From a virus: a stretch of 44,568 bases of DNA. This document shows positions 1,834 to 35,618 of this stretch, piece by piece. Positions within the stretch are counted from its first letter, which is position 1. Each line of letters starts with the position of its first letter. The DNA is taken from UHGV virus genome UHGV-0171754, one strand, 5' to 3'. The notes beneath the pieces were generated by a model. That model was given only the letters and a program-made list of their open reading frames with translations, did not search any database and was not told the origin of the DNA. Both the position numbers and the translations under genes were made by a program.

Positions 1834-2256
1834 TCAGGCGCAACAGGTGTAGGGGACTGTAACCACGATGCGGGCGCGATCAACGTCCTCAACCACTGAA
1901 CTGGTGTATGGCGCGTCCTGAAGCTGGAATACAGCGCCGGAAATCTTTACCGCCAGCCACTTATCCGACGTAGCGATGGCGTCCGCCAGTTCGCTCGCGT
2001 ACTGTGTGCCAGTACCCGCGGGGAACACAACGGCAACCTGATAAACGCCTGCATATATTCTCCCCTTTTGCTGGAGGCCCACAAACTGGGTCGGGGCCGG
2101 TAGCAGGTACGGCTCCAGGTAGACACCACTCCCGATTGCGTGGTCCCCTTGCACGTTCTCCCAGTTAACCCGGATCGGACGCTGGCTTGTGCTCAGGCGC
2201 GCCGATAACTCTTCTACCACGCTGTTAAGCGCTTTGCGGATTGCGGTATTGCTCAT
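1834..2256 (-). CDS. Tail terminator protein (gpU-like)
   Basis: 140 aa; position directly upstream of major tail gene as in lambda U-V order; start overlaps upstream stop (TAATG). Confidence 0.5.
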   Translation of the reverse strand: MSNTAIRKALNSVVEELSARLSTSQRPIRVNWENVQGDHAIGSGVYLEPYLLPAPTQFVGLQQKGRIYAGVYQVAVVFPAGTGTQYASELADAIATSDKWLAVKISGAVFQLQDAPYTSSVVEDVDRARIVVTVPYTCCA

Positions 2257-2849
2257 TATTTCACCTTCGAATTAATTTCTGCCGCTACGACGCGAACAAT
2301 CCCCGCGGGCGCTTGTTTACTCCAGCCATACTCAAGTCGCTGCGCGTATGGCACGTTGTTAGTAAACCAGATCGACCCGTATTCACTCGAATCGTAGTGC
2401 GCCAGCACTTCACGCCCTGCGGCTAATGTTGCCGTTCCGGCCTTGTCCACGCGGTCAATAGCACCAACAGCCGGGCGGTCAAACGTCACCTGCCAGTTCC
2501 CCCGGAAGCGTCCGCCGGTGTAATTCTTCGCGGCCCAGCCACGCTGGCGGAACGTGACGTTGCCATTTTTAGTCTTGAATGATACCAGCACGCTGGCGTG
2601 CTTTTTCTGCCCGCGCTTCAGTTTGCCACCATTCTTGCGACGCTGCGCGGCGTTCACCTTGTTCGCGTGCTGGCGGGCCAGCGCGTAAGCCCTGTTAATT
2701 TTCCACCGGCGAGGGTCGCCCACCGGGGAGATCTCAATAAGGCGTCCGAGTATTTGCATCCCGTACGCCCGCACCGCCTTATCGTTGTTCTCCTTCGTCT
2801 TATCCACCCACGTAGCAATAGTGGCGGCGAATGAGTAGACTTCAGCCAC
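2256..2849 (-). CDS. Tail completion protein (gpZ-like)
   Basis: 197 aa; GTG start 1 nt after upstream stop with AAGGGG RBS; size and position match lambda Z. Confidence 0.45.
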   Translation of the reverse strand: MAEVYSFAATIATWVDKTKENNDKAVRAYGMQILGRLIEISPVGDPRRWKINRAYALARQHANKVNAAQRRKNGGKLKRGQKKHASVLVSFKTKNGNVTFRQRGWAAKNYTGGRFRGNWQVTFDRPAVGAIDRVDKAGTATLAAGREVLAHYDSSEYGSIWFTNNVPYAQRLEYGWSKQAPAGIVRVVAAEINSKVK

Positions 2850-2850
2850 G

Positions 2851-3204
2851 TTAGCCCCTTAGCTGTAGTTGAAACAGCATGGTCTGGCCTGCCGGTTGCA
2901 GGGGGTTTGGATTGATAACCCGGTAGTCTGTATTGTTCAGGCTAACCAAATCCCCGACCTTTACCTGATTGACGGCCTGACACAAAAACTTCACATCACC
3001 GGCAACGATACGCGTCCCGTCGATCTCGCTCGGCTTGTACTCCTCTCGAAGACCGATGACGTCAAACGAGGTCGGAGGGATGACCACTTCGTCGCCGTCT
3101 ACGCGGTCGACTGTACCAGGACGCGTCACCGTAGCCGTCATGCCGTACTTTTTAATCAGCGGATTGACTTTCCGCTTTAACCCCGCGTAATTAAAGCCCG
3201 CCAT
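2851..3204 (-). CDS. Head-tail joining protein (gpFII-like)
   Basis: 117 aa from ATG (MAGFNYAG) with GGAGG RBS; position between connector and tail completion genes. Confidence 0.5.
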   Translation of the reverse strand: MAGFNYAGLKRKVNPLIKKYGMTATVTRPGTVDRVDGDEVVIPPTSFDVIGLREEYKPSEIDGTRIVAGDVKFLCQAVNQVKVGDLVSLNNTDYRVINPNPLQPAGQTMLFQLQLRG

Positions 3205-3307
3205 TATCATCCTCCTGTACCGGTGGTTCCGGTTCTGGCGCTGGTTCCGGTTCTGGTTGGCGTTTAGTATTTGCGGCGATAATAGCCGCCAGTAATGCAG
3301 GATTCAT
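3191..3307 (-). CDS. Small Pro/Glu-repeat ORF (38 aa), hypothetical
   Basis: MNPALLAAIIAANTKRQPEPEPAPEPEPPVQEDDNGGL; ATG overlaps upstream stop (TAATATG); below the 60 aa track threshold; built on a tandem DNA repeat. Confidence 0.25.
   Translation of the reverse strand: MNPALLAAIIAANTKRQPEPEPAPEPEPPVQEDDNGGL
3224..3255. repeat. Tandem direct repeat ggttccggttctgg x2
   Basis: Two copies separated by cgct; encodes the PEPEP repeat on the minus strand. Confidence 0.7.
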
Positions 3308-3308
3308 A

Positions 3309-3809
3309 TTACCCCCGGAATACATCAAAATTACCCGCTGCGTTGCCGTCTGAGTCAATCCAGTGGCCCAGCAAGCCATCCCACCACGGGAACGAGACAC
3401 CGCTACCAATCGTCGCAGGGTCATATTCCATCGTGATCGGGCCAACAGTTTCGCGGATAGTCTCCTTACCGCTGCCCACAGGAGAAATATCAACCTCGTC
3501 CGCCACCAACATCGCCAACCGGTAAACGGCTTGCTCAACGGCAACGGGGATTGATGCGAAGTCTACTATTTGCCCTGCAGGCACTACTGCCAAAACTTCA
3601 GTGAGCGTGTCGCGCACCGGCTTGCCGTCAGATGGGTAATTGATGCGAGGCCATGCGTCGATGCCTGTCTGGTCTGCGGGTTCGCCGATCCAGTTGATGC
3701 CGTTAAGGAAGTCATTAACGACGGTGAGGTATCGCGTTGCATCGCTCAGCGTGACTTCAACGCCTCGCGCTGCGGCATAATCGACAAAGGTTTGCGGGTC
3801 GCCATACAT
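3309..3809 (-). CDS. Head-tail connector/adaptor protein (gp6-like)
   Basis: 166 aa from ATG (MYGDPQTFVDYAAARG) with GGAG RBS; immediately downstream of major capsid gene. Confidence 0.5.
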   Translation of the reverse strand: MYGDPQTFVDYAAARGVEVTLSDATRYLTVVNDFLNGINWIGEPADQTGIDAWPRINYPSDGKPVRDTLTEVLAVVPAGQIVDFASIPVAVEQAVYRLAMLVADEVDISPVGSGKETIRETVGPITMEYDPATIGSGVSFPWWDGLLGHWIDSDGNAAGNFDVFRG

Positions 3810-3824
3810 TTCATTCACTCCTAT

Positions 3825-3848
3825 AAAAAAGGCGGGCATAAGCCCGCC
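3825..3848 (-). terminator. Attenuator/terminator after major capsid gene
   Basis: Stem ggcgggc/gcccgcc with 4 nt loop, T-run on minus strand. Confidence 0.5.
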
Positions 3849-3867
3849 CCTTTGGGATGTGCGCCCG

Positions 3868-4968
3868 TTAAGACGCGGTAGTCTCAGTCAGCGTAACCAG
3901 TACGCCAGCCGTTTCCTTGATGTGACGGGTCGGCACTTCCTGTGCGGCCTGGGTCTTACGACGGCCTTTAGTATCACCATCACCCACAGCGCCAACATCT
4001 TGAACGGTTGCCGGTGCGTTGTCTACCTGGCCCTGGTCCAGCTCCCAGTTAGCGGAAGTGGTGATGTCGGACAGTTTGAACGAGCGGACGCCTTCGATCG
4101 GGGTACGAGCGGACGCCTTCAGACGATAGCCTTTAACAGCCACGTTGAAGTCGAACTCACCCTGCCACCAGCGCTCGATGTTCTCGTTACCGCCTTTCTC
4201 CTGCGCCAGCATATCAAGGCCGTTGGTGGTAACTGCAACCGCGCCAGGGACCAGGCCCAGCATGTTACCAGCACCCATAGCATCGGCAGCGGCATCGGAG
4301 ATAATGAAGCGACGGCCCAGGCCATCTCCCATTACCTGGAGATCGCCAATTGCGAATACCTGCTCGGCAGACGGGAGCGCCTGGTATGCAATAAAGTTTG
4401 CCCAGGTAACGCCGTCCATAAACCACGATTTAATCAAAGACGCCTGATCGCCGAACTTAGAAGCCGCCAGCGGGAAGTCTGCCAGGGTCGGGAAGGTACG
4501 ACCGCCAACGCCGTCAACGCGCGCCGGTTGGGTGTATTTTGCCGCTGCGTTGCTTTCGATCGCCGCTTTACCCGCACCGATACCCGCTTTCAGGTAGTGC
4601 AACAAAATCGCTTGAGTGGCCTGCGCCGCAATCTCAGCCGCAACGCTGTTAACGTTGGTTTCGATCTTAGCCATCATAGCCTTAGTGATTGCCACCGGAC
4701 CCACTTTCGCGGACAGGTTGACGGAGTTGGTCAGCATACGCGCCAGCACTTTTGCGGTCGCCGGAGTACCTACAGGGGCATAGGCGTTACGGTCGGTAAC
4801 TAGGTTGGCGATCAAGCCTACGGACATTTTTTCTACAACATCCTTCAGCACTTCACCCGTACCGAGAACAACAGCGCCATTTGCGGCGGCGTTGAACACG
4901 TTCAGGTTATCGGGGATCATTTGCGTAACCGCGGTGACGAGTTTACGCTGGAACACTGTTAAAGACAT
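3868..4968 (-). CDS. Major capsid protein
   Basis: 366 aa; AAAGGA RBS 7 nt before ATG; position after scaffold and before connector genes; sequence looks like a major capsid protein of the HK97-fold class; hairpin terminator follows. Confidence 0.8.
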   Translation of the reverse strand: MSLTVFQRKLVTAVTQMIPDNLNVFNAAANGAVVLGTGEVLKDVVEKMSVGLIANLVTDRNAYAPVGTPATAKVLARMLTNSVNLSAKVGPVAITKAMMAKIETNVNSVAAEIAAQATQAILLHYLKAGIGAGKAAIESNAAAKYTQPARVDGVGGRTFPTLADFPLAASKFGDQASLIKSWFMDGVTWANFIAYQALPSAEQVFAIGDLQVMGDGLGRRFIISDAAADAMGAGNMLGLVPGAVAVTTNGLDMLAQEKGGNENIERWWQGEFDFNVAVKGYRLKASARTPIEGVRSFKLSDITTSANWELDQGQVDNAPATVQDVGAVGDGDTKGRRKTQAAQEVPTRHIKETAGVLVTLTETTAS

Positions 4969-5065
4969 ATCGAAATCCTTTGAGTTGTGAGCATTCGCCC
5001 AGTACCGTTAATGTTACCTTAGATTTACGCGCTCGCAAAATCGCCCGCTTTCGCGGGCAATTTGC

Positions 5066-5767
5066 TTACTCGTCGCCCATTTTAGCGATGATTTCACCAG
5101 CCTGTTTCGTCAGATCGGTGATGCCGAAGCTGTGGCCCATAGAGATTTTCGACTTCACATCTTCGACAACATGCGTCGGTTTGCTCGGCGCACCACCGGC
5201 TGGCGTGCCAGCCAGGACGGATGCAAAATCGGCGTTATTACGGAACTCTTTTTCAAGCTCTTCCATAGTCAGCGCGGACGGTTTACCATCCTGCAAGACA
5301 CGCACCTTCAAGCTGCCGTCTTCGCCGTCTTCCAGCGTCAGGCGGTCCATTACGTGGCGTTGCATGATTCCAGCATTCTTACCGAACAGCTTCGAGGCCA
5401 AATCTTTGGCAGCGCTGCCGATGGTTAGATCGTGGATCTGCTTGCGGTAGGCTTCGATTTTTCCCGATGTGTCCGCTTCATGTTTTGCGAACTTATCTTT
5501 CCAGGACTTATCGATCGCTTCGAGGTCGCCATTTTTGCGCGCGGCGGCTTCCTCTTTCTCTTTCGCAAGGCGCTCAGCTTCGGCGCGACGTTCGGCTTCT
5601 GCTCTCTTCTCGCTAACCAGCTTCGCGTTGTTGTCTTTCAGACCCTTGATCTCCGCCTGTACTTCTTCGGCGGTCATGAACGTGGATTTATACCCATCGC
5701 CATCGGCAACAAATAAAGCCTTCATGCCTTCTGGCAACGCGTCATATTCTGCTTTAGTAAGTTTCAT
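5066..5767 (-). CDS. Scaffolding protein
   Basis: 233 aa from ATG (MKLTKAEYDAL) with AGGGGGA RBS; charged coiled-coil-like (KRAEAERRAEAERLAKEKEEAAARK); sits between morphogenesis and capsid genes. Confidence 0.6.
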   Translation of the reverse strand: MKLTKAEYDALPEGMKALFVADGDGYKSTFMTAEEVQAEIKGLKDNNAKLVSEKRAEAERRAEAERLAKEKEEAAARKNGDLEAIDKSWKDKFAKHEADTSGKIEAYRKQIHDLTIGSAAKDLASKLFGKNAGIMQRHVMDRLTLEDGEDGSLKVRVLQDGKPSALTMEELEKEFRNNADFASVLAGTPAGGAPSKPTHVVEDVKSKISMGHSFGITDLTKQAGEIIAKMGDE

Positions 5768-6685: not shown

Positions 6686-6706
6686 AAGGGGCCATTATGG
6701 CCCCTT
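6686..6706. terminator. Bidirectional intrinsic terminator between convergent genes
   Basis: 9 bp stem aaggggcca/tggcccctt with 3 nt loop, A-run upstream and T-rich run downstream. Confidence 0.6.
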
Positions 6707-6925
6707 AATTATTTGCTGCAACTCCAGCACCTGCGCCCTTAGCTTCGCCCCGCATTCCATATTTTTCACGTCAATCATCAAATCTTCGTCGGGGTCCGCA
6801 GACGGGTTATCGAACTTGCACGGCGGTCGCAGTGCCGATTCCGTTAGCGGCATCAACGGCACGCTGCTTGATCCGCACGCGCTCAGCGTCAAAACTACAA
6901 TCAGGGCGGTTAGGGCGCGTAACAT
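6695..6925 (-). CDS. o-spanin (Rz1-like outer membrane lipoprotein)
   Basis: 76 aa from MLRALTALIVVLTLSAC; lipobox LSAC, proline-rich mature part; reading frame overlaps the 3' part of the i-spanin gene. Confidence 0.55.
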   Translation of the reverse strand: MLRALTALIVVLTLSACGSSSVPLMPLTESALRPPCKFDNPSADPDEDLMIDVKNMECGAKLRAQVLELQQIIKGP

Positions 6926-7136
6926 ATTTAACAACCTCTTTTGTGATAGTCCGGTATTCCACGTCGCGGGCTTGTTCTGCCTGCACGGAGCGCTCAATTA
7001 CTTTAGTTTGCTGCCGTTGGGCTTGGGATTGCGCTTCTTGCGCCGCCTTCGCCACTACGCCAGCGCGGTAGGAGTCACCTAGCCAGAATCCTACCGCCAG
7101 ACCCATAACCAGTCCAATAGCCGCATATTTAATCAC
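6807..7136 (-). CDS. i-spanin (Rz-like)
   Basis: 109 aa; N-terminal transmembrane segment (IKYAAIGLVMGLAVGFWLG), then charged coiled-coil region and a C-terminal Cys; GTG start overlapping upstream stop. Confidence 0.6.
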   Translation of the reverse strand: MIKYAAIGLVMGLAVGFWLGDSYRAGVVAKAAQEAQSQAQRQQTKVIERSVQAEQARDVEYRTITKEVVKYVTRPNRPDCSFDAERVRIKQRAVDAANGIGTATAVQVR

Positions 7137-13231: not shown

Positions 13232-13723
13232 TTATGCGGCGTTACGCCCGATTTTCTCGGCAACGTCCCACTGCTTACCATCAAACAACGCCTGTCTGCC
13301 GATTGCACGGCGCACCAGACCCTTAAGCACTTCCCCGCCTTGCTTGCGGAACAGCGGCAGCGTAGCACGTACCTTCGCCCAGTCGCCCAACCGCACCGCG
13401 TCATCGAAATCATTCGCGACGCCATCCGGTACGATCGGACCCGGACCGGCGTTGATTACCAGGTCCACCAGCGCGTCAAATTGCGCCTGGTTAATGCTCG
13501 GATGTGCGTATTTGTTCACCCAGTCCTCGGCATACGCCACATCGCGCTTGAGCAATGCCAGCGCTTCCTCGCGGGTAATGCTTCGTGGCGGATTAGTGCC
13601 AGTATGACCATAACCCCAGGTGTACAGGCCGCGGGCCTGCTCTTTCTTGGTCGCGAAATACGGCACCGGGCTGAAAGCCTCCCATGCTGCCGTAAATCGT
13701 AGACCGTTATCACTGAATCGCAT
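13232..13723 (-). CDS. Endolysin (lysozyme-like glycoside hydrolase)
   Basis: 163 aa; EAFSPVPY...WGYGHTG segment resembles phage lysozymes (family assignment GH24-like is from memory); adjacent to holin-like genes. Confidence 0.75.
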   Translation of the reverse strand: MRFSDNGLRFTAAWEAFSPVPYFATKKEQARGLYTWGYGHTGTNPPRSITREEALALLKRDVAYAEDWVNKYAHPSINQAQFDALVDLVINAGPGPIVPDGVANDFDDAVRLGDWAKVRATLPLFRKQGGEVLKGLVRRAIGRQALFDGKQWDVAEKIGRNAA

Positions 13724-13955
13724 GTTTTACCCCATTTAAAACAGCATTACGCAGGGTGCGCAATGCAAACAGCCAGATTAACGCGGTCCAGGTGGTATCC
13801 GATACGTCTCCTGTTTGCAACAGTCCAATAAGACAGATCATTGCCGTTAACAGATACAGCACCCGGCCTAAGATGCCATCCTGGACGGACGGCGCATACA
13901 CGTTAAACAGGGACGAAGCCCCGATGATAACAAACAACAGGACGGAGATAATCAT
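13710..13955 (-). CDS. Holin/antiholin-like small membrane protein
   Basis: 81 aa, hydrophobic segments; overlaps endolysin start and upstream gene stop. Confidence 0.5.
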   Translation of the reverse strand: MIISVLLFVIIGASSLFNVYAPSVQDGILGRVLYLLTAMICLIGLLQTGDVSDTTWTALIWLFALRTLRNAVLNGVKHAIQ

Positions 13956-14242
13956 TTTGCGCCCCCCGGAAGGTGTAGCGTCGCAATTGTCTCCCGGATC
14001 CGGTCAGCTATTGGCATCCAGAAGATGGCAGTTACGAAGCCCAAACCGGCGACAGTGCGCTCCCCCGACAAACCAGCCCACTCAGCGATAGCCGGTGCGC
14101 CAAATATGGCACACAGGAAGCCAACTACAACATACAAAACGAAGTTTAGCGGCCCCTTCGTAGCCTCACCATGAATGCGTGCGCCTACGAAGCCACCCGC
14201 CAGACATGCCAGGGCGAATAGCCACTCGTTTAGCTTATCCAT
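13952..14242 (-). CDS. Holin-like membrane protein
   Basis: 96 aa with at least two hydrophobic segments; first gene after a terminator, directly upstream of endolysin. Confidence 0.5.
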   Translation of the reverse strand: MDKLNEWLFALACLAGGFVGARIHGEATKGPLNFVLYVVVGFLCAIFGAPAIAEWAGLSGERTVAGLGFVTAIFWMPIADRIRETIATLHLPGGAK

Positions 14243-32496: not shown

Positions 32497-34320
32497 TTAT
32501 TTCTCCGCCAACTTACTTTCCAAAGCCTCAACCTTCGCCGCCAAATGCTGAACAGTCGCGACAAGGTCAAGTAACAGGACGTTTTCATCTAATGCCAGAA
32601 ACTCTTTACCAGTTGCGTCGGCGTACTTGCGAACATACTGCGGGTCGATCTCTTCCAACTGCTGCGCGATAAAACCACGTCTGACTGTCTCCTTTTTGTC
32701 GTAATTATAGACAAAGGAAGAGTATTCCATTGCCATAACGTTATCGAACGCAACTTGAGTGTCGATCCTGGCGATATCATGCTTCAGCGCCCTGTCGGAT
32801 ACCGGGGATTTTGCGAAAATATATCCAACCGACCCAGCGTTGTTGCCGAAGGTAATATCGTATGACTCGGCGTTAAAGGTAGTATTCCGAACTATATCGG
32901 CGTTAGGCTGCAGTCCAGTCGCCAGATCATAGTCAAAGACCTGCGAAATCATAGCGTGAGGGTGTGATGACCCCGCAACGGGGTGAATCAACGCCCCGAA
33001 CGAAATGAAGTTACGCCACCCACCACCCGCCGTGCCCGCGCCACCACCAATAAAACCTACGTGGCCCGCGTACTGGCTGTCCATCCAGGTATTAGGAAGG
33101 GTCGCGTAGGTATTAACAGGCGACGCAGAAATGGACGATGGCCTCAATGCTTTATAAAAAATAAGCCTACCATCATATTTAAAGTCCCACGACGGCGAGT
33201 TCACCGGGTCGAGGACGTTAACGGTCGCCAAACGGGTCCAGGCGTCTACGTTATTACGCCCCTGAAGCTGAATCGACGTTCTGTATTTTTCGGCCCCAGC
33301 AACGGTCACAGATGAGTCGAATCTACCGCCGTATACTTCTGCGCCATTCGCCAGATCTGAAGCGTAATTATTGCGTAAACCCCAAATCCCCACGTCATCA
33401 AGACCGCGCCACACCCACCCTTTAGTCGCAGAGTCAAGAGGGTCGACTGGGTCCGCGCCTACGCGAAGCGGTCCTGACGGCATAAGGTTAGCCCACGACG
33501 CACTTTTGTCCGCAAGCCCGGCGAGGTTGCCGGATTTGGTTAGCAGATTGTCGGGGTTTACGCTTTGCGCCCATTCTTCGGCCTGATCGCGAAATCCCTG
33601 CGCGGCAGTGCTGGCGGCTTGCGCTTCAGCCTTCGCGGCGTTGGCCTCGTCGCGAATAGCGCCGGTGTCAGTCTTGATCTGGTTAGTCTGGTCTTTGATC
33701 GCCTGCGTATCAGCCTTAATCTGATCAGTCTGCGTTTTGATGGTATTAGTGGCATCGCGAATGCCTGCCGTATCTGCCTTAATCTGGTTGGTGGCATCGC
33801 GAATGCCAGCCGTCTCCGTCTTGAAGCCTTCGGCCTCATTGCGAAATCCTTGCGCTGCTGCTTCAGATGCCGCGGCTTGTTGTTGCAGGTTGCGCATTTC
33901 AACGGGGTCAACTTCCTTCAGCAATTGCGACAGGTAGCCCCAGGACATACCCTGCATAACTTGCCCGTTCGGCAGCGTTACCGTTATTTCTTCTTCGTCT
34001 CCGAAGATCGCACGCCAGTTGTTTTCGTCCGCGATCATCAAGCGCAACGCTTTCTGTGCCTGGACGGTTACGCCCATCGTCGCCAGCGACATGGTATCGC
34101 GCTTAACACCATCCCACGCGAGTCCCGTTGCCGTGGGGCCGTCGAACGGCAGCACCAGCGTAAGCGCGGTGTCGCTTTCGACGGACGCGATCGCAACAGT
34201 GTATGGCACTTGTCCTACCACCAGCGTTAAGAAGTCGCCAGCCTTGAACGCGGTAAACGTTGTGCCGACGCCGACAACCGCCTTGCTGTTATTCGTTACG
34301 GATAGAGTACCCGCTGCCAT
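32497..34320 (-). CDS. Tail fiber protein with central tandem repeats and C-terminal intramolecular chaperone-like domain
   Basis: 607 aa; repeated ~10 aa units (GIRDATNQIKADTAGIRDATNTIKTQTDQIKADTQAIKDQTNQIKTDTGAIRDEA); C-terminal SDRALKHDI...YNYDKKETVRRGFIAQQLEEIDPQYV resembles self-cleaving chaperone domains of tail fibers and endosialidases. Confidence 0.75.
   Translation of the reverse strand: MAAGTLSVTNNSKAVVGVGTTFTAFKAGDFLTLVVGQVPYTVAIASVESDTALTLVLPFDGPTATGLAWDGVKRDTMSLATMGVTVQAQKALRLMIADENNWRAIFGDEEEITVTLPNGQVMQGMSWGYLSQLLKEVDPVEMRNLQQQAAASEAAAQGFRNEAEGFKTETAGIRDATNQIKADTAGIRDATNTIKTQTDQIKADTQAIKDQTNQIKTDTGAIRDEANAAKAEAQAASTAAQGFRDQAEEWAQSVNPDNLLTKSGNLAGLADKSASWANLMPSGPLRVGADPVDPLDSATKGWVWRGLDDVGIWGLRNNYASDLANGAEVYGGRFDSSVTVAGAEKYRTSIQLQGRNNVDAWTRLATVNVLDPVNSPSWDFKYDGRLIFYKALRPSSISASPVNTYATLPNTWMDSQYAGHVGFIGGGAGTAGGGWRNFISFGALIHPVAGSSHPHAMISQVFDYDLATGLQPNADIVRNTTFNAESYDITFGNNAGSVGYIFAKSPVSDRALKHDIARIDTQVAFDNVMAMEYSSFVYNYDKKETVRRGFIAQQLEEIDPQYVRKYADATGKEFLALDENVLLLDLVATVQHLAAKVEALESKLAEK
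33615..33870. repeat. Imperfect tandem DNA repeats (about 30-33 bp units) inside the tail fiber gene
   Basis: Units such as ggcatcgcgaatgcc(a/t)gccgt(a/c)tc(t/c)g and ctgatcagtctg / ctggttagtctg recur; encode the peptide repeats. Confidence 0.6.
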
Positions 34321-34339
34321 AGCTAAATCCTCGTATAAA

Positions 34340-34371
34340 TTGGTTGCATTCGTGATTGAGCGGTGTAATAC
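34340..34371 (+). promoter_or_regulatory. Candidate promoter (TTGCAT-16-TAATAC) with TTGGTTGC octamer for the lipoprotein gene
   Basis: Octamer at 34340-34347; -10 at 34366-34371. Confidence 0.4.
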
Positions 34372-34403
34372 TAAAACTCAACCAAATATAGGGGGATGAT
34401 ACC

Positions 34404-34622
34404 ATGAAAACTTTAATTATGATTTGTGCGGTTCTTCTGTCGGGTTGTGCCAACATGCCGACTAAAGTCTGCGACGCGACATATGTTAATAGCGGCATGG
34501 AATACTCGGTCCCGGTGTTTGGGGTTGCCGACTTTAGTGGACACAAAATGATCAAGGCTGGGTATCCGTTCAACTTCCAGTATGTGTCGGTCGACCACTT
34601 CAAAAGCACAACCTGCAAATAA
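34404..34622 (+). CDS. Small lipoprotein (72 aa), opposite-strand insertion next to the tail fiber gene; candidate superinfection-exclusion protein
   Basis: Signal peptide with lipobox MKTLIMICAVLLSGC; AGGGGGA RBS; own promoter and terminator hairpin. Confidence 0.65.
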   Translation: MKTLIMICAVLLSGCANMPTKVCDATYVNSGMEYSVPVFGVADFSGHKMIKAGYPFNFQYVSVDHFKSTTCK

Positions 34623-34637
34623 GCCCCTTTCGGGGCT
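34622..34637 (+). terminator. Hairpin terminator after the lipoprotein gene
   Basis: Stem agcccc/ggggct with tttc loop, followed by ttcttc (weak T-run). Confidence 0.45.
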
Positions 34638-34641
34638 TTCT

Positions 34642-35316
34642 TCAATCATAATTGGCGGTGTTAATCGCCATAATCGCGTTGCCGTTGTTAGTATATCCCA
34701 CCACATCCCCCGTGGCGTTCCCCGACGACGCTGCCGATATACGCGTTCGCGACCCATCAAATCTGGCCCCCGTGAACGCCGTTACCGATATTACTTGCGG
34801 CTGGCCCTGCACAAAAAACCGGATCAGCGTAGACCCCAATATGCCCGGAGCGACGGCGTAGCTGCCGTTTAGCGTCTGGTCAATGTTAATCCCCCCGTTA
34901 GCGCCTGGCGATCCGACGGTAACTAAATCACTTAGTACGCGACTCTCATTAGTAAGCACTAGCTCCCCCGTCTTATCCCAAATAGCGAAGCCCCACCGCG
35001 GAAGGGTCTGTGGGAATATAGCAAAGATGTAAGCCGTCATCGTGAAGCCCTGCCCGAATGGATTGCTGGCGCTCACCTTCACCACATTACCAACGCGAGA
35101 AGACCCTACGACGGTCGGCTGGGCGGTGTGCGTAGTTTTCACAAACGCTATTGCAGGGTAGTCACCACCCAAATTAATATCGGCAGCCGCCGACTGCGCA
35201 GTGCCGTTAGCCGAAGACCCGACAACCACACGGCGGAATAGACAAAACGGCGTCGATTCAGGCGTGATAAACGGGTTGCCGTTTGGTAAGTCAATCAACG
35301 CGCCGTAATTAGCCAT
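34642..35316 (-). CDS. Hypothetical tail-associated protein (224 aa)
   Basis: Position between the J-like tip protein and the tail fiber; Gly/Ser/Thr/Asn-rich. Confidence 0.5.
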   Translation of the reverse strand: MANYGALIDLPNGNPFITPESTPFCLFRRVVVGSSANGTAQSAAADINLGGDYPAIAFVKTTHTAQPTVVGSSRVGNVVKVSASNPFGQGFTMTAYIFAIFPQTLPRWGFAIWDKTGELVLTNESRVLSDLVTVGSPGANGGINIDQTLNGSYAVAPGILGSTLIRFFVQGQPQVISVTAFTGARFDGSRTRISAASSGNATGDVVGYTNNGNAIMAINTANYD

Positions 35317-35618
35317 TATGCTCGCTCCACAAAAACAATAACGTCACATTCAGATGCGGAGTAAACCCCGCCACCTACCTCACTTGCCGCGGAAACCGTT
35401 ATAGTGTTCCCGCTGGCGGTTATTCTGCGGCCTGGCCCGACCGCGCCTTTATCCAGTGCGACCACGTATCCGACCTTCATCCCCGCCGGTACCGGGAAGG
35501 ACCATGCGCCTGATTTTTGTCCTTCCGCAAGATGAATCCTTCCGATAACCGATACCGGTTTAATCCCATAGTTGTTCGGTCGCCCTTGTGCGTCCCATGT
35601 TGCTATTCCGAAAGCCAT
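35316..35618 (-). CDS. Hypothetical tail-associated protein (100 aa)
   Basis: Start after a terminator; stop overlaps downstream ATG. Confidence 0.45.
   Translation of the reverse strand: MAFGIATWDAQGRPNNYGIKPVSVIGRIHLAEGQKSGAWSFPVPAGMKVGYVVALDKGAVGPGRRITASGNTITVSAASEVGGGVYSASECDVIVFVERA

Follow-up and report, generated by a model that had tools for sequence, protein, structure and literature searches.

The Cor lipoproteins of the temperate phages phi80, N15, HK022 and mEp167 have been studied experimentally, and it is documented that they shut out FhuA-dependent phages and inactivate FhuA. Inactivation of FhuA functions and exclusion of FhuA-dependent phages are also cited for Cor in recent papers (10.64898/2026.03.26.714494, PMC13164509, PMC11990801), and one of them reports that every BASEL phage among the Drexlerviridae and Dhillonviruses which uses FhuA carries the Cor cassette (PMC13164509). 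According to another, the mechanism has not been elucidated for any Cor protein (10.64898/2026.03.26.714494), and for a T1-like Cor an AF3 model with an ipTM of 0.84 has been reported (PMC13164509). In case of phage T5, the lipoprotein Llp binds the periplasmic face of FhuA, keeps the plug non-native and causes the phage binding site to be covered by the inward-folded loops EL7 and EL8; the Llp termini are joined by a Cys11-Cys58 disulfide (PMC9586334). For both T1 Cor and T5 Llp, protection of the progeny from debris has been stated (PMC11990801). Further, Rtp45 and Rtp44 form a structurally characterised pair, i.e., an exclusion lipoprotein for LptD and its receptor-binding protein (PMC12685063).

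In our study, a stretch of 44,568 nucleotides (UHGV virus genome UHGV-0171754, here called the window) was analysed, which is a near-complete Dhillonvirus genome with about 93% nucleotide identity to UAE_MI-01 and YD-2008.s. Judged by sequence comparison, the ORF at 34404-34622 is an ordinary copy of the named and curated gene cor (Table 1). Its product matches PHROG 1119 'Cor superinfection exclusion protein' over the full length (E 2.7e-27, residues 1-72) and passes the NCBIfam equivalog NF047972 'phage exclusion lipoprotein Cor' with 60.1 bits (cutoff 31; residues 2-71). Pfam gave no real match; the single one, to a herpesvirus domain, was due to chance (E 0.041). Of 50,697 phage records searched by tblastn, 246 had a full-length match, and about 78 of these, all of Dhillonvirus type and many labelled Cor or super-infection exclusion protein, showed 60-99% identity. 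Over the full length, the Cor proteins of T1, HK022 and phi80 are 48%, 42% and 40% identical to the present protein, respectively. A wide profile search, built from an alignment of divergent Cor proteins, returned 357 clusters from a collection of 5.8 billion proteins, many of which are named 'phage exclusion lipoprotein Cor' by NCBI; a first word-indexed search had given 6 close relatives only. Cys15, Cys23, Cys71, Ala52, Gly53 and Phe66 were invariant in alignments of 11 and 70 Cor members, and the AGYPF motif was nearly invariant, with P55 and F56 at least 90% conserved. The features of Cor membership are present together: a model score above the cutoff, a lipobox without Asp at +2, two further cysteines with AGYPF, and a location just downstream of an FhuA-type module. 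The first-pass annotation had proposed a superinfection-exclusion lipoprotein next to receptor-recognition genes, and the assignment to the Cor family (NF047972, PHROG 1119) and the homology to Cor of T1, phi80 and HK022 support this proposal. It is not a new candidate; orthologues are annotated in many relatives, also within the same genus, and the link between the Cor cassette and FhuA has been published for Drexlerviridae and Dhillonviruses (PMC13164509).

Table 1. Coordinates of the cor locus in the window and of the corresponding features in compared phages.
Feature	Coordinates	Strand	Details
cor gene	34404-34622	+	ATG-initiated ORF, 72 aa plus stop
Cor signal peptide (predicted), residues 1-14	34404-34445	+	
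Cor lipidation site (predicted), Cys15	34446-34448	+	mature protein of 58 residues
Promoter-like element of cor	34344-34372	+	-35 TTGCAT 34344-34349, 17-nt spacer, TG 34364-34365, -10 AATACT 34367-34372
RBS AGGGGGA of cor	34390-34396	+	7 nt 5' of ATG; GGGG/GGAG kept in relatives
Hairpin AAGCCCC-TTTC-GGGGCTT	34621-34638	both	7-bp stem where cor and the gp23-like gene converge, between their stop codons
gp23-like 'hand-like' protein (N15 gp23-like), 224 aa	34642-35316	-	PHROG 425, E 1.3e-69
N15 gp22-like protein, 100 aa, accessory/distal tail-tip	35316-35618	-	PHROG 557, E 9.9e-33
J-like central tail fiber / tail tip protein, 1139 aa	35655-39074	-	98-99% identical to JLBYU37/60/Envy
Lateral tail fiber gene, divergent from cor; 607 aa with an S74 intramolecular chaperone domain at the C-terminus	32497-34320	-	Pfam PF13884, E 7.5e-12; PHROG 1980
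Shared upstream region	34321-34418 of the window; 3058-3152 of the HK578 stretch and 3590-3686 of the EP23 stretch examined		
EP23 unannotated lipoprotein ORF, 80 aa, MKTLIKNLIIPAACLLMTAC...	3672-3914 of the EP23 stretch examined (Shigella phage EP23, JN984867.1)	+	PHROG 12984, E 1.2e-39
KS_S9 antisense 'hypothetical protein'	4976-5242 of the KS_S9 stretch examined (PP920551.1)	-	window counterpart 34289-34645 (-)
phi367 cor locus	3001-3228 of the phi367 stretch examined		
SSU5 cor locus	2127-3234 of the SSU5 stretch examined		

The 72-residue translation (MKTLIMICAVLLSGCANMPTKVCDATYVNSGMEYSVPVFGVADFSGHKMIKAGYPFNFQYVSVDHFKSTTCK) has the organisation of a lipoprotein precursor, in which MKTLIMICAVLLSGC is followed by ANMPTKVC...TTCK (translation of 34404-34622, + strand). 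The n-region contains Lys2, the Kyte-Doolittle hydropathy of the h-region TLIMICAVLL averages 3.0, and the lipobox is L-S-G-C, with MKTLIMICAVLLSG preceding the cysteine. The 72 aa lipoprotein and its placement on the strand opposite to its neighbours, both recorded in the first-pass annotation, were borne out, with L-S-G-C ending at Cys15 and all flanking genes lying on the - strand. A loose lipobox pattern was matched by 5 of the 377 six-frame ORFs of the window; the lipobox by itself is weak evidence, and it is homology which establishes cor as a real gene. According to the Lol sorting rule, a lipoprotein without Asp at +2 goes to the outer membrane. The residue at +2 of the lipidated cysteine is Ala in this Cor, hence an outer membrane location is predicted.

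Besides exclusion proteins, o-spanin subunits are the other common class of small phage lipoproteins, and the small size, the lipobox and the predicted outer-membrane sorting would equally suit an Rz1-like lysis protein. This role is contradicted by the lysis genes of the window, placed using the YD-2008.s annotation, as an Rz/Rz1 pair is present at 6698-7136 (-) and holins and endolysin at 13235-14242 (-), more than 20 kb away; moreover, no i-spanin partner is found near cor and the protein matches Cor models rather than spanin families. We therefore attach practically no probability to a lysis function.

Two long antisense ORFs, 34289-34645 and 34413-34760, overlap cor, and in phage KS_S9 (PP920551.1), the closest relative with a 98.6% identical Cor, the antisense ORF is annotated as a hypothetical protein and cor is omitted; the coding strand was therefore put to test. 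In six Dhillonvirus cor copies, the variable columns numbered 12/10/34 at codon positions 1/2/3 of the + frame, and the ratio of synonymous to nonsynonymous codon differences was 239:118 in this frame as compared to 174:162 in the best antisense frame. This third-position variation and synonymous excess identify both antisense ORFs as shadow ORFs and the + strand ORF as the gene. The opposite reading, in which 34289-34645 (118 aa) is the real gene, has in its favour the open antisense frame in the window and the KS_S9 entry, but it is contradicted by these counts as well as by the retention of the + frame protein down to 28-40% identity, with invariant Cys residues, in hundreds of genomes, and by an RBS, promoter and terminator which all suit a + strand gene, so that we hardly give it any credence. 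In several other relatives cor is named merely 'hypothetical protein', and the analysis hence flags some close relatives in which cor is either annotated on the wrong strand or left unannotated.

The genes convergent with cor encode a tail-tip module which is nearly identical to that of phages with a known receptor. The J, gp22-like and gp23-like proteins are overall 98-100% identical to those of JLBYU37, JLBYU60 and Envy (99% for the gp23-like protein), and the gp22-like protein is 99-100% identical to those of FhuA-dependent Dhillonviruses. JLBYU37, JLBYU60 and Envy have been found experimentally to depend on FhuA and to require its loop L8 (PMC10373560). The gp23-like/gp22-like/J module is a predicted FhuA binder (PMC12309495, PMC8594841), and the gp23-like 'hand-like' protein of JLBYU60 has been modelled to bind FhuA (PMC12309495). 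The gp23-like protein of the window is hence a probable FhuA-binding receptor-binding protein and the cognate partner of cor, as suggested by these models. T1, Hanrivervirus aaroes, phi80, Erwinia phage Midgardsormr38 and Salmonella phage SSU5 all share the order J - gp22-like - gp23-like - cor, cor being co-directional with the tail genes in the temperate phages, whereas it is inverted in T1, aaroes and the Dhillonviruses. In contrast, the lateral tail fiber protein is just 56-60% identical to its relatives and most likely recognises surface glycans. The first-pass annotation was thus right in placing the gene between the tail fiber gene and other tail genes, but the functional partner of cor is the convergent gp23-like/gp22-like/J module and not the lateral tail fiber gene.

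A few further observations were made on these genes. The labels 'membrane associated protein' (PHROG 425, 34642-35316) and 'outer membrane protein' (PHROG 557, 35316-35618) look inherited and wrong; neither a signal peptide nor a hydrophobic or transmembrane segment was found in the gp23-like and gp22-like proteins (maximum 19-residue hydropathy 1.0-1.2), and both are treated as tail-tip receptor-binding components in recent papers. Residues ~165-240 of the lateral fiber protein form a degenerate repeat run (GIRDATNQIKADT / GIRDATNTIKTQT / DQIKADTQAIKDQTNQIKTDT), followed by a divergent receptor-binding part and then by the S74 domain. Cor homologues occur also outside the siphophages with J-type tips. 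In phi367, a Stx-type podophage of the Sepvirinae, cor directly follows the tail fiber adhesin gene and gp22/gp23-like genes are absent, and in SSU5 cor comes after the gp22/gp23-like pair, which itself follows a tail fiber plus adhesin.

Cor-like proteins are also found in BtuB-using phages (PMC13164509), among them some T5-like and Tempevirinae phages, and the present lipoprotein could in principle serve a receptor other than FhuA, e.g., BtuB. A recombination history of cor unlike that of its neighbours (83% nucleotide identity vs 97-99% for the gp23-like gene, in comparison to JLBYU60 and Envy) would agree with such a change of target. However, the FhuA-dependent phages Envy, JLBYU37 and JLBYU60 carry Cor proteins 83-89% identical to the present one, the protein reaches the Cor model at equivalog level, and a different target is very unlikely because the receptor module is 98-100% identical to that of these FhuA-dependent phages.

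Among the Cor proteins described, that of T1 (ST30) and other Drexlerviridae is a full-length homologue with 48-49% identity (57% for the Hanrivervirus copies) and shares the lipobox, the conserved cysteines and the AGYPF motif. The two loci have the same gene order with cor inverted and convergent and nearly the same -35/-10 architecture and terminator stem, and like T1 the present phage is regarded as a virulent FhuA-dependent siphophage. It differs from T1 in genus, in a signal peptide shorter by 2-3 residues and in the far side of cor, which is occupied by recE in T1 and by the lateral tail fiber gene here. The Cor proteins of phi80, N15, HK022 and mEp167 belong to the same family (40-43% identity), carry a 3-residue insertion after the lipobox in comparison to the present Cor, and are encoded with the same J-gp22-gp23-cor module. 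In these temperate phages cor points the same way as the tail genes and is a moron expressed from the prophage, whereas in the virulent phage studied here it is inverted and must act in lytic growth.

The mature protein was modelled with AlphaFold2 from the 70-sequence alignment as a small beta-sheet protein with a mean pLDDT of 83.8, rising above 90 for residues 21-70. By two methods its best structural match was T5 Llp in the FhuA-Llp crystal structure (8a60_B). In Foldseek, Llp ranked first of 350,542 chains with TM 0.53/0.61, at an E-value of 0.038 which is weak alone, small beta-barrel (SH3/Tudor-like) folds being a class that yields many low-level structural matches. A single-sequence search of PDB sequences with Cor gave chance matches only, and the Cor family profile found Llp as its best match in the same set, with an E-value of 0.014 and 18.4 bits that came partly from the signal peptide. 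In this profile alignment the second cysteine is aligned (CEAYYM...VF in Llp, CDATYV...VF in Cor here), and the Cor cysteines at mature positions 9 and 57 mirror the Cys11-Cys58 disulfide of Llp. The predicted fold of mature Cor is hence Llp-like. The likeness to T5 Llp (PDB 8A60, 7QJF) is accompanied by only ~22% sequence identity and by a profile E-value of 0.014 that is borderline, and the T5 partner, the receptor-binding protein pb5, is unrelated to the gp22/gp23-like proteins of the present phage.

Taking these results together, the ORF is most probably the cor gene of a virulent Dhillonvirus which uses FhuA as its terminal receptor, and its product an Llp-like periplasmic lock on FhuA. 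From the timing of its expression to its localisation, its binding to FhuA and the allosteric step, we infer the following course of events. A sigma-70-type promoter of its own would drive transcription of the gene, separately from the late tail genes on the opposite strand, and the 72-aa precursor would be exported and, after lipidation on Cys15, cleaved by signal peptidase II. Lipidated Cor, lying in the inner leaflet of the outer membrane, would jam FhuA from the periplasm; the 58-residue mature protein, with its ends presumably tied by a Cys23-Cys71 disulfide, would bind the FhuA plug at the periplasmic face and lock the receptor in a state unusable by FhuA-dependent phages. By analogy with T5 Llp, the extracellular loops EL7/EL8 may then fold inward, and closure of loop 8, which is needed by such Dhillonviruses, would prevent adsorption. 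An infected cell is thereby expected to resist superinfection by its own phage and by other FhuA-dependent phages such as T1, T5 and phi80. The progeny of the lytic phage would also not be lost by adsorbing to the envelope debris of the lysed cell, and by analogy with T1 and T5 this is probably the main pay-off for a virulent phage. The masking of the receptor suggested in the first-pass annotation is probably the wrong picture of this process.

The Llp-like fold, the mirrored disulfide and the known action of Llp on FhuA make the same mechanism the most likely one for Cor. The papers searched contained no exclusion experiment with a Dhillonvirus Cor, and the function assigned here therefore rests on homology and context. 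Cor is reportedly able to interact with several other outer membrane proteins (the 2018 work of Arguijo-Hernandez), and a simple one-to-one lock of Cor on FhuA may for this reason be incomplete. It can accordingly be argued that the protein is a Cor which acts not by an Llp-like lock but with or through OmpA, OmpC, OmpF or others, or which blocks a post-adsorption step such as DNA entry; the title and citations of Arguijo-Hernandez et al. and the moderate structural likeness to Llp (TM about 0.5-0.6) lend some weight to this, together with the statement in a 2026 preprint that the mechanism of Cor is not elucidated (10.64898/2026.03.26.714494). However, two methods agree on Llp as the best structural match, the disulfide is conserved, and the reported inactivation of FhuA transport by Cor suits a direct effect on FhuA, so that we consider these other routes unlikely and retain the periplasmic lock on FhuA. 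For annotation, the presence of cor predicts the use of FhuA by the phage carrying it, and cells infected by such a phage are predicted to be refractory to other FhuA-dependent phages, which is of relevance to phage cocktails.

The first-pass annotation had also assigned cor its own promoter and terminator. A promoter-like arrangement of the extended -10 type (TG-T-AATACT, 34364-34372) is present upstream, and its TTGCA core of the -35 element, TG and -10 hexamer are invariant in 6 Dhillonviruses, the 'n' of TGn being among the few variable sites. In T1, whose Cor is 48% identical, TTGCAA-17-TACAAT lies at the equivalent position and ends 29 nt 5' of the cor start. The consensus promoter/terminator scan called neither this element upstream of cor nor the hairpin after its stop, the latter being missed because of the T-run rule of the scan, and both were judged instead by conservation and folding. 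The folding energy of the hairpin is -15.2 kcal/mol for the + strand and -15.6 for the - strand (z about -2.2 to -2.3); in T1 a nearly identical stem, annotated as terminator, occupies the corresponding position, and a comparable stem is found in Hanrivervirus aaroes. Since the hairpin of the window sits where cor and the gp23-like gene converge, between their two stop codons, it is probably a bidirectional terminator shared by the two genes. The promoter-like element is thus retained as the putative site from which cor would be transcribed, with a start predicted near 34379, and the terminator is likewise retained but does not belong to cor exclusively.

The upstream region of cor is also found in front of lipoprotein genes unrelated to it. 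Three unrelated lipoprotein genes of different Dhillonviruses begin with the same five codons (MKTLI) and share about 110 bp of promoter/RBS region before them; these are the genes of Cor (PHROG 1119) in the present phage, of an Rtp45-like protein (PHROG 4281) in HK578 and of a PHROG 12984 protein in EP23, and the receptor module differs in each. HK578 carries at this slot an Rtp45-like lipoprotein and an Rtp44-like protein, an LptD-type module, and lacks cor; Dhillonviruses with such a different cassette serve as a natural control. The Rtp45-type protein (phage Rtp; HK578 gp24; LptD, PDB 9RPS) resembles Cor in being a small lipoprotein paired with a cognate receptor-binding protein (PMC12685063) and, in HK578, shares the promoter region, RBS and five-codon start with cor. 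On the other hand, its mature sequence is unrelated, its target is LptD and its gene is co-directional with that of its receptor-binding protein. A kinship of Cor with the Rtp45-type lipoprotein (HK578 gp24) was considered and rejected, since blastp gave an E-value of 0.066 over 42 residues, the PHROG (4281) differs and the likeness ends at the leader. The ORF list of the window contains no Rtp44-like gene. EP23 has a longer J and no separate receptor-binding protein gene; its unannotated 80-aa lipoprotein ORF, which is followed by its own hairpin, sits between this longer J gene and the lateral fiber gene and probably encodes an exclusion lipoprotein for a third receptor.

The homology breakpoint at the slot falls inside the signal-peptide coding sequence, and with the joint at this position an exclusion protein gained by recombination would come under expression and export signals that are already in place. 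We tentatively propose, as a possibility that falls somewhat short of an even chance, that the slot between the lateral tail fiber and tail-tip genes is a fixed 'expression socket' for exclusion lipoproteins, with the joint of receptor-switching recombination inside the signal-peptide coding sequence. The sharing of the upstream region and MKTLI with the unrelated HK578 and EP23 lipoprotein genes is the sole point in which the present locus suggests something mildly new.

Mosaicism is also seen on the other side of the gene. In comparison to JLBYU37/60/Envy, cor has 83-84% nucleotide identity as against 97-99% for the adjacent gp23-like gene, and YD-2008.s shows the reverse pattern with 91% for cor and only 54% for the gp23-like gene. 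These identities across 34404-35316 put an apparent recombination breakpoint at the shared hairpin or close to it.

The lateral tail fiber gene is cut off from the J operon by the hairpin and the antisense cor (32497-34641, -). By eye, nothing convincing as a - strand promoter for this gene was seen in the conserved intergenic region, and the sole match of the promoter scan, 34443-34416 inside cor, was rejected as its sequence is replaced in HK578 and EP23. The lateral fiber gene may be transcribed by read-through past the hairpin, antisense to cor, and such antisense late transcription could switch cor off late in infection.
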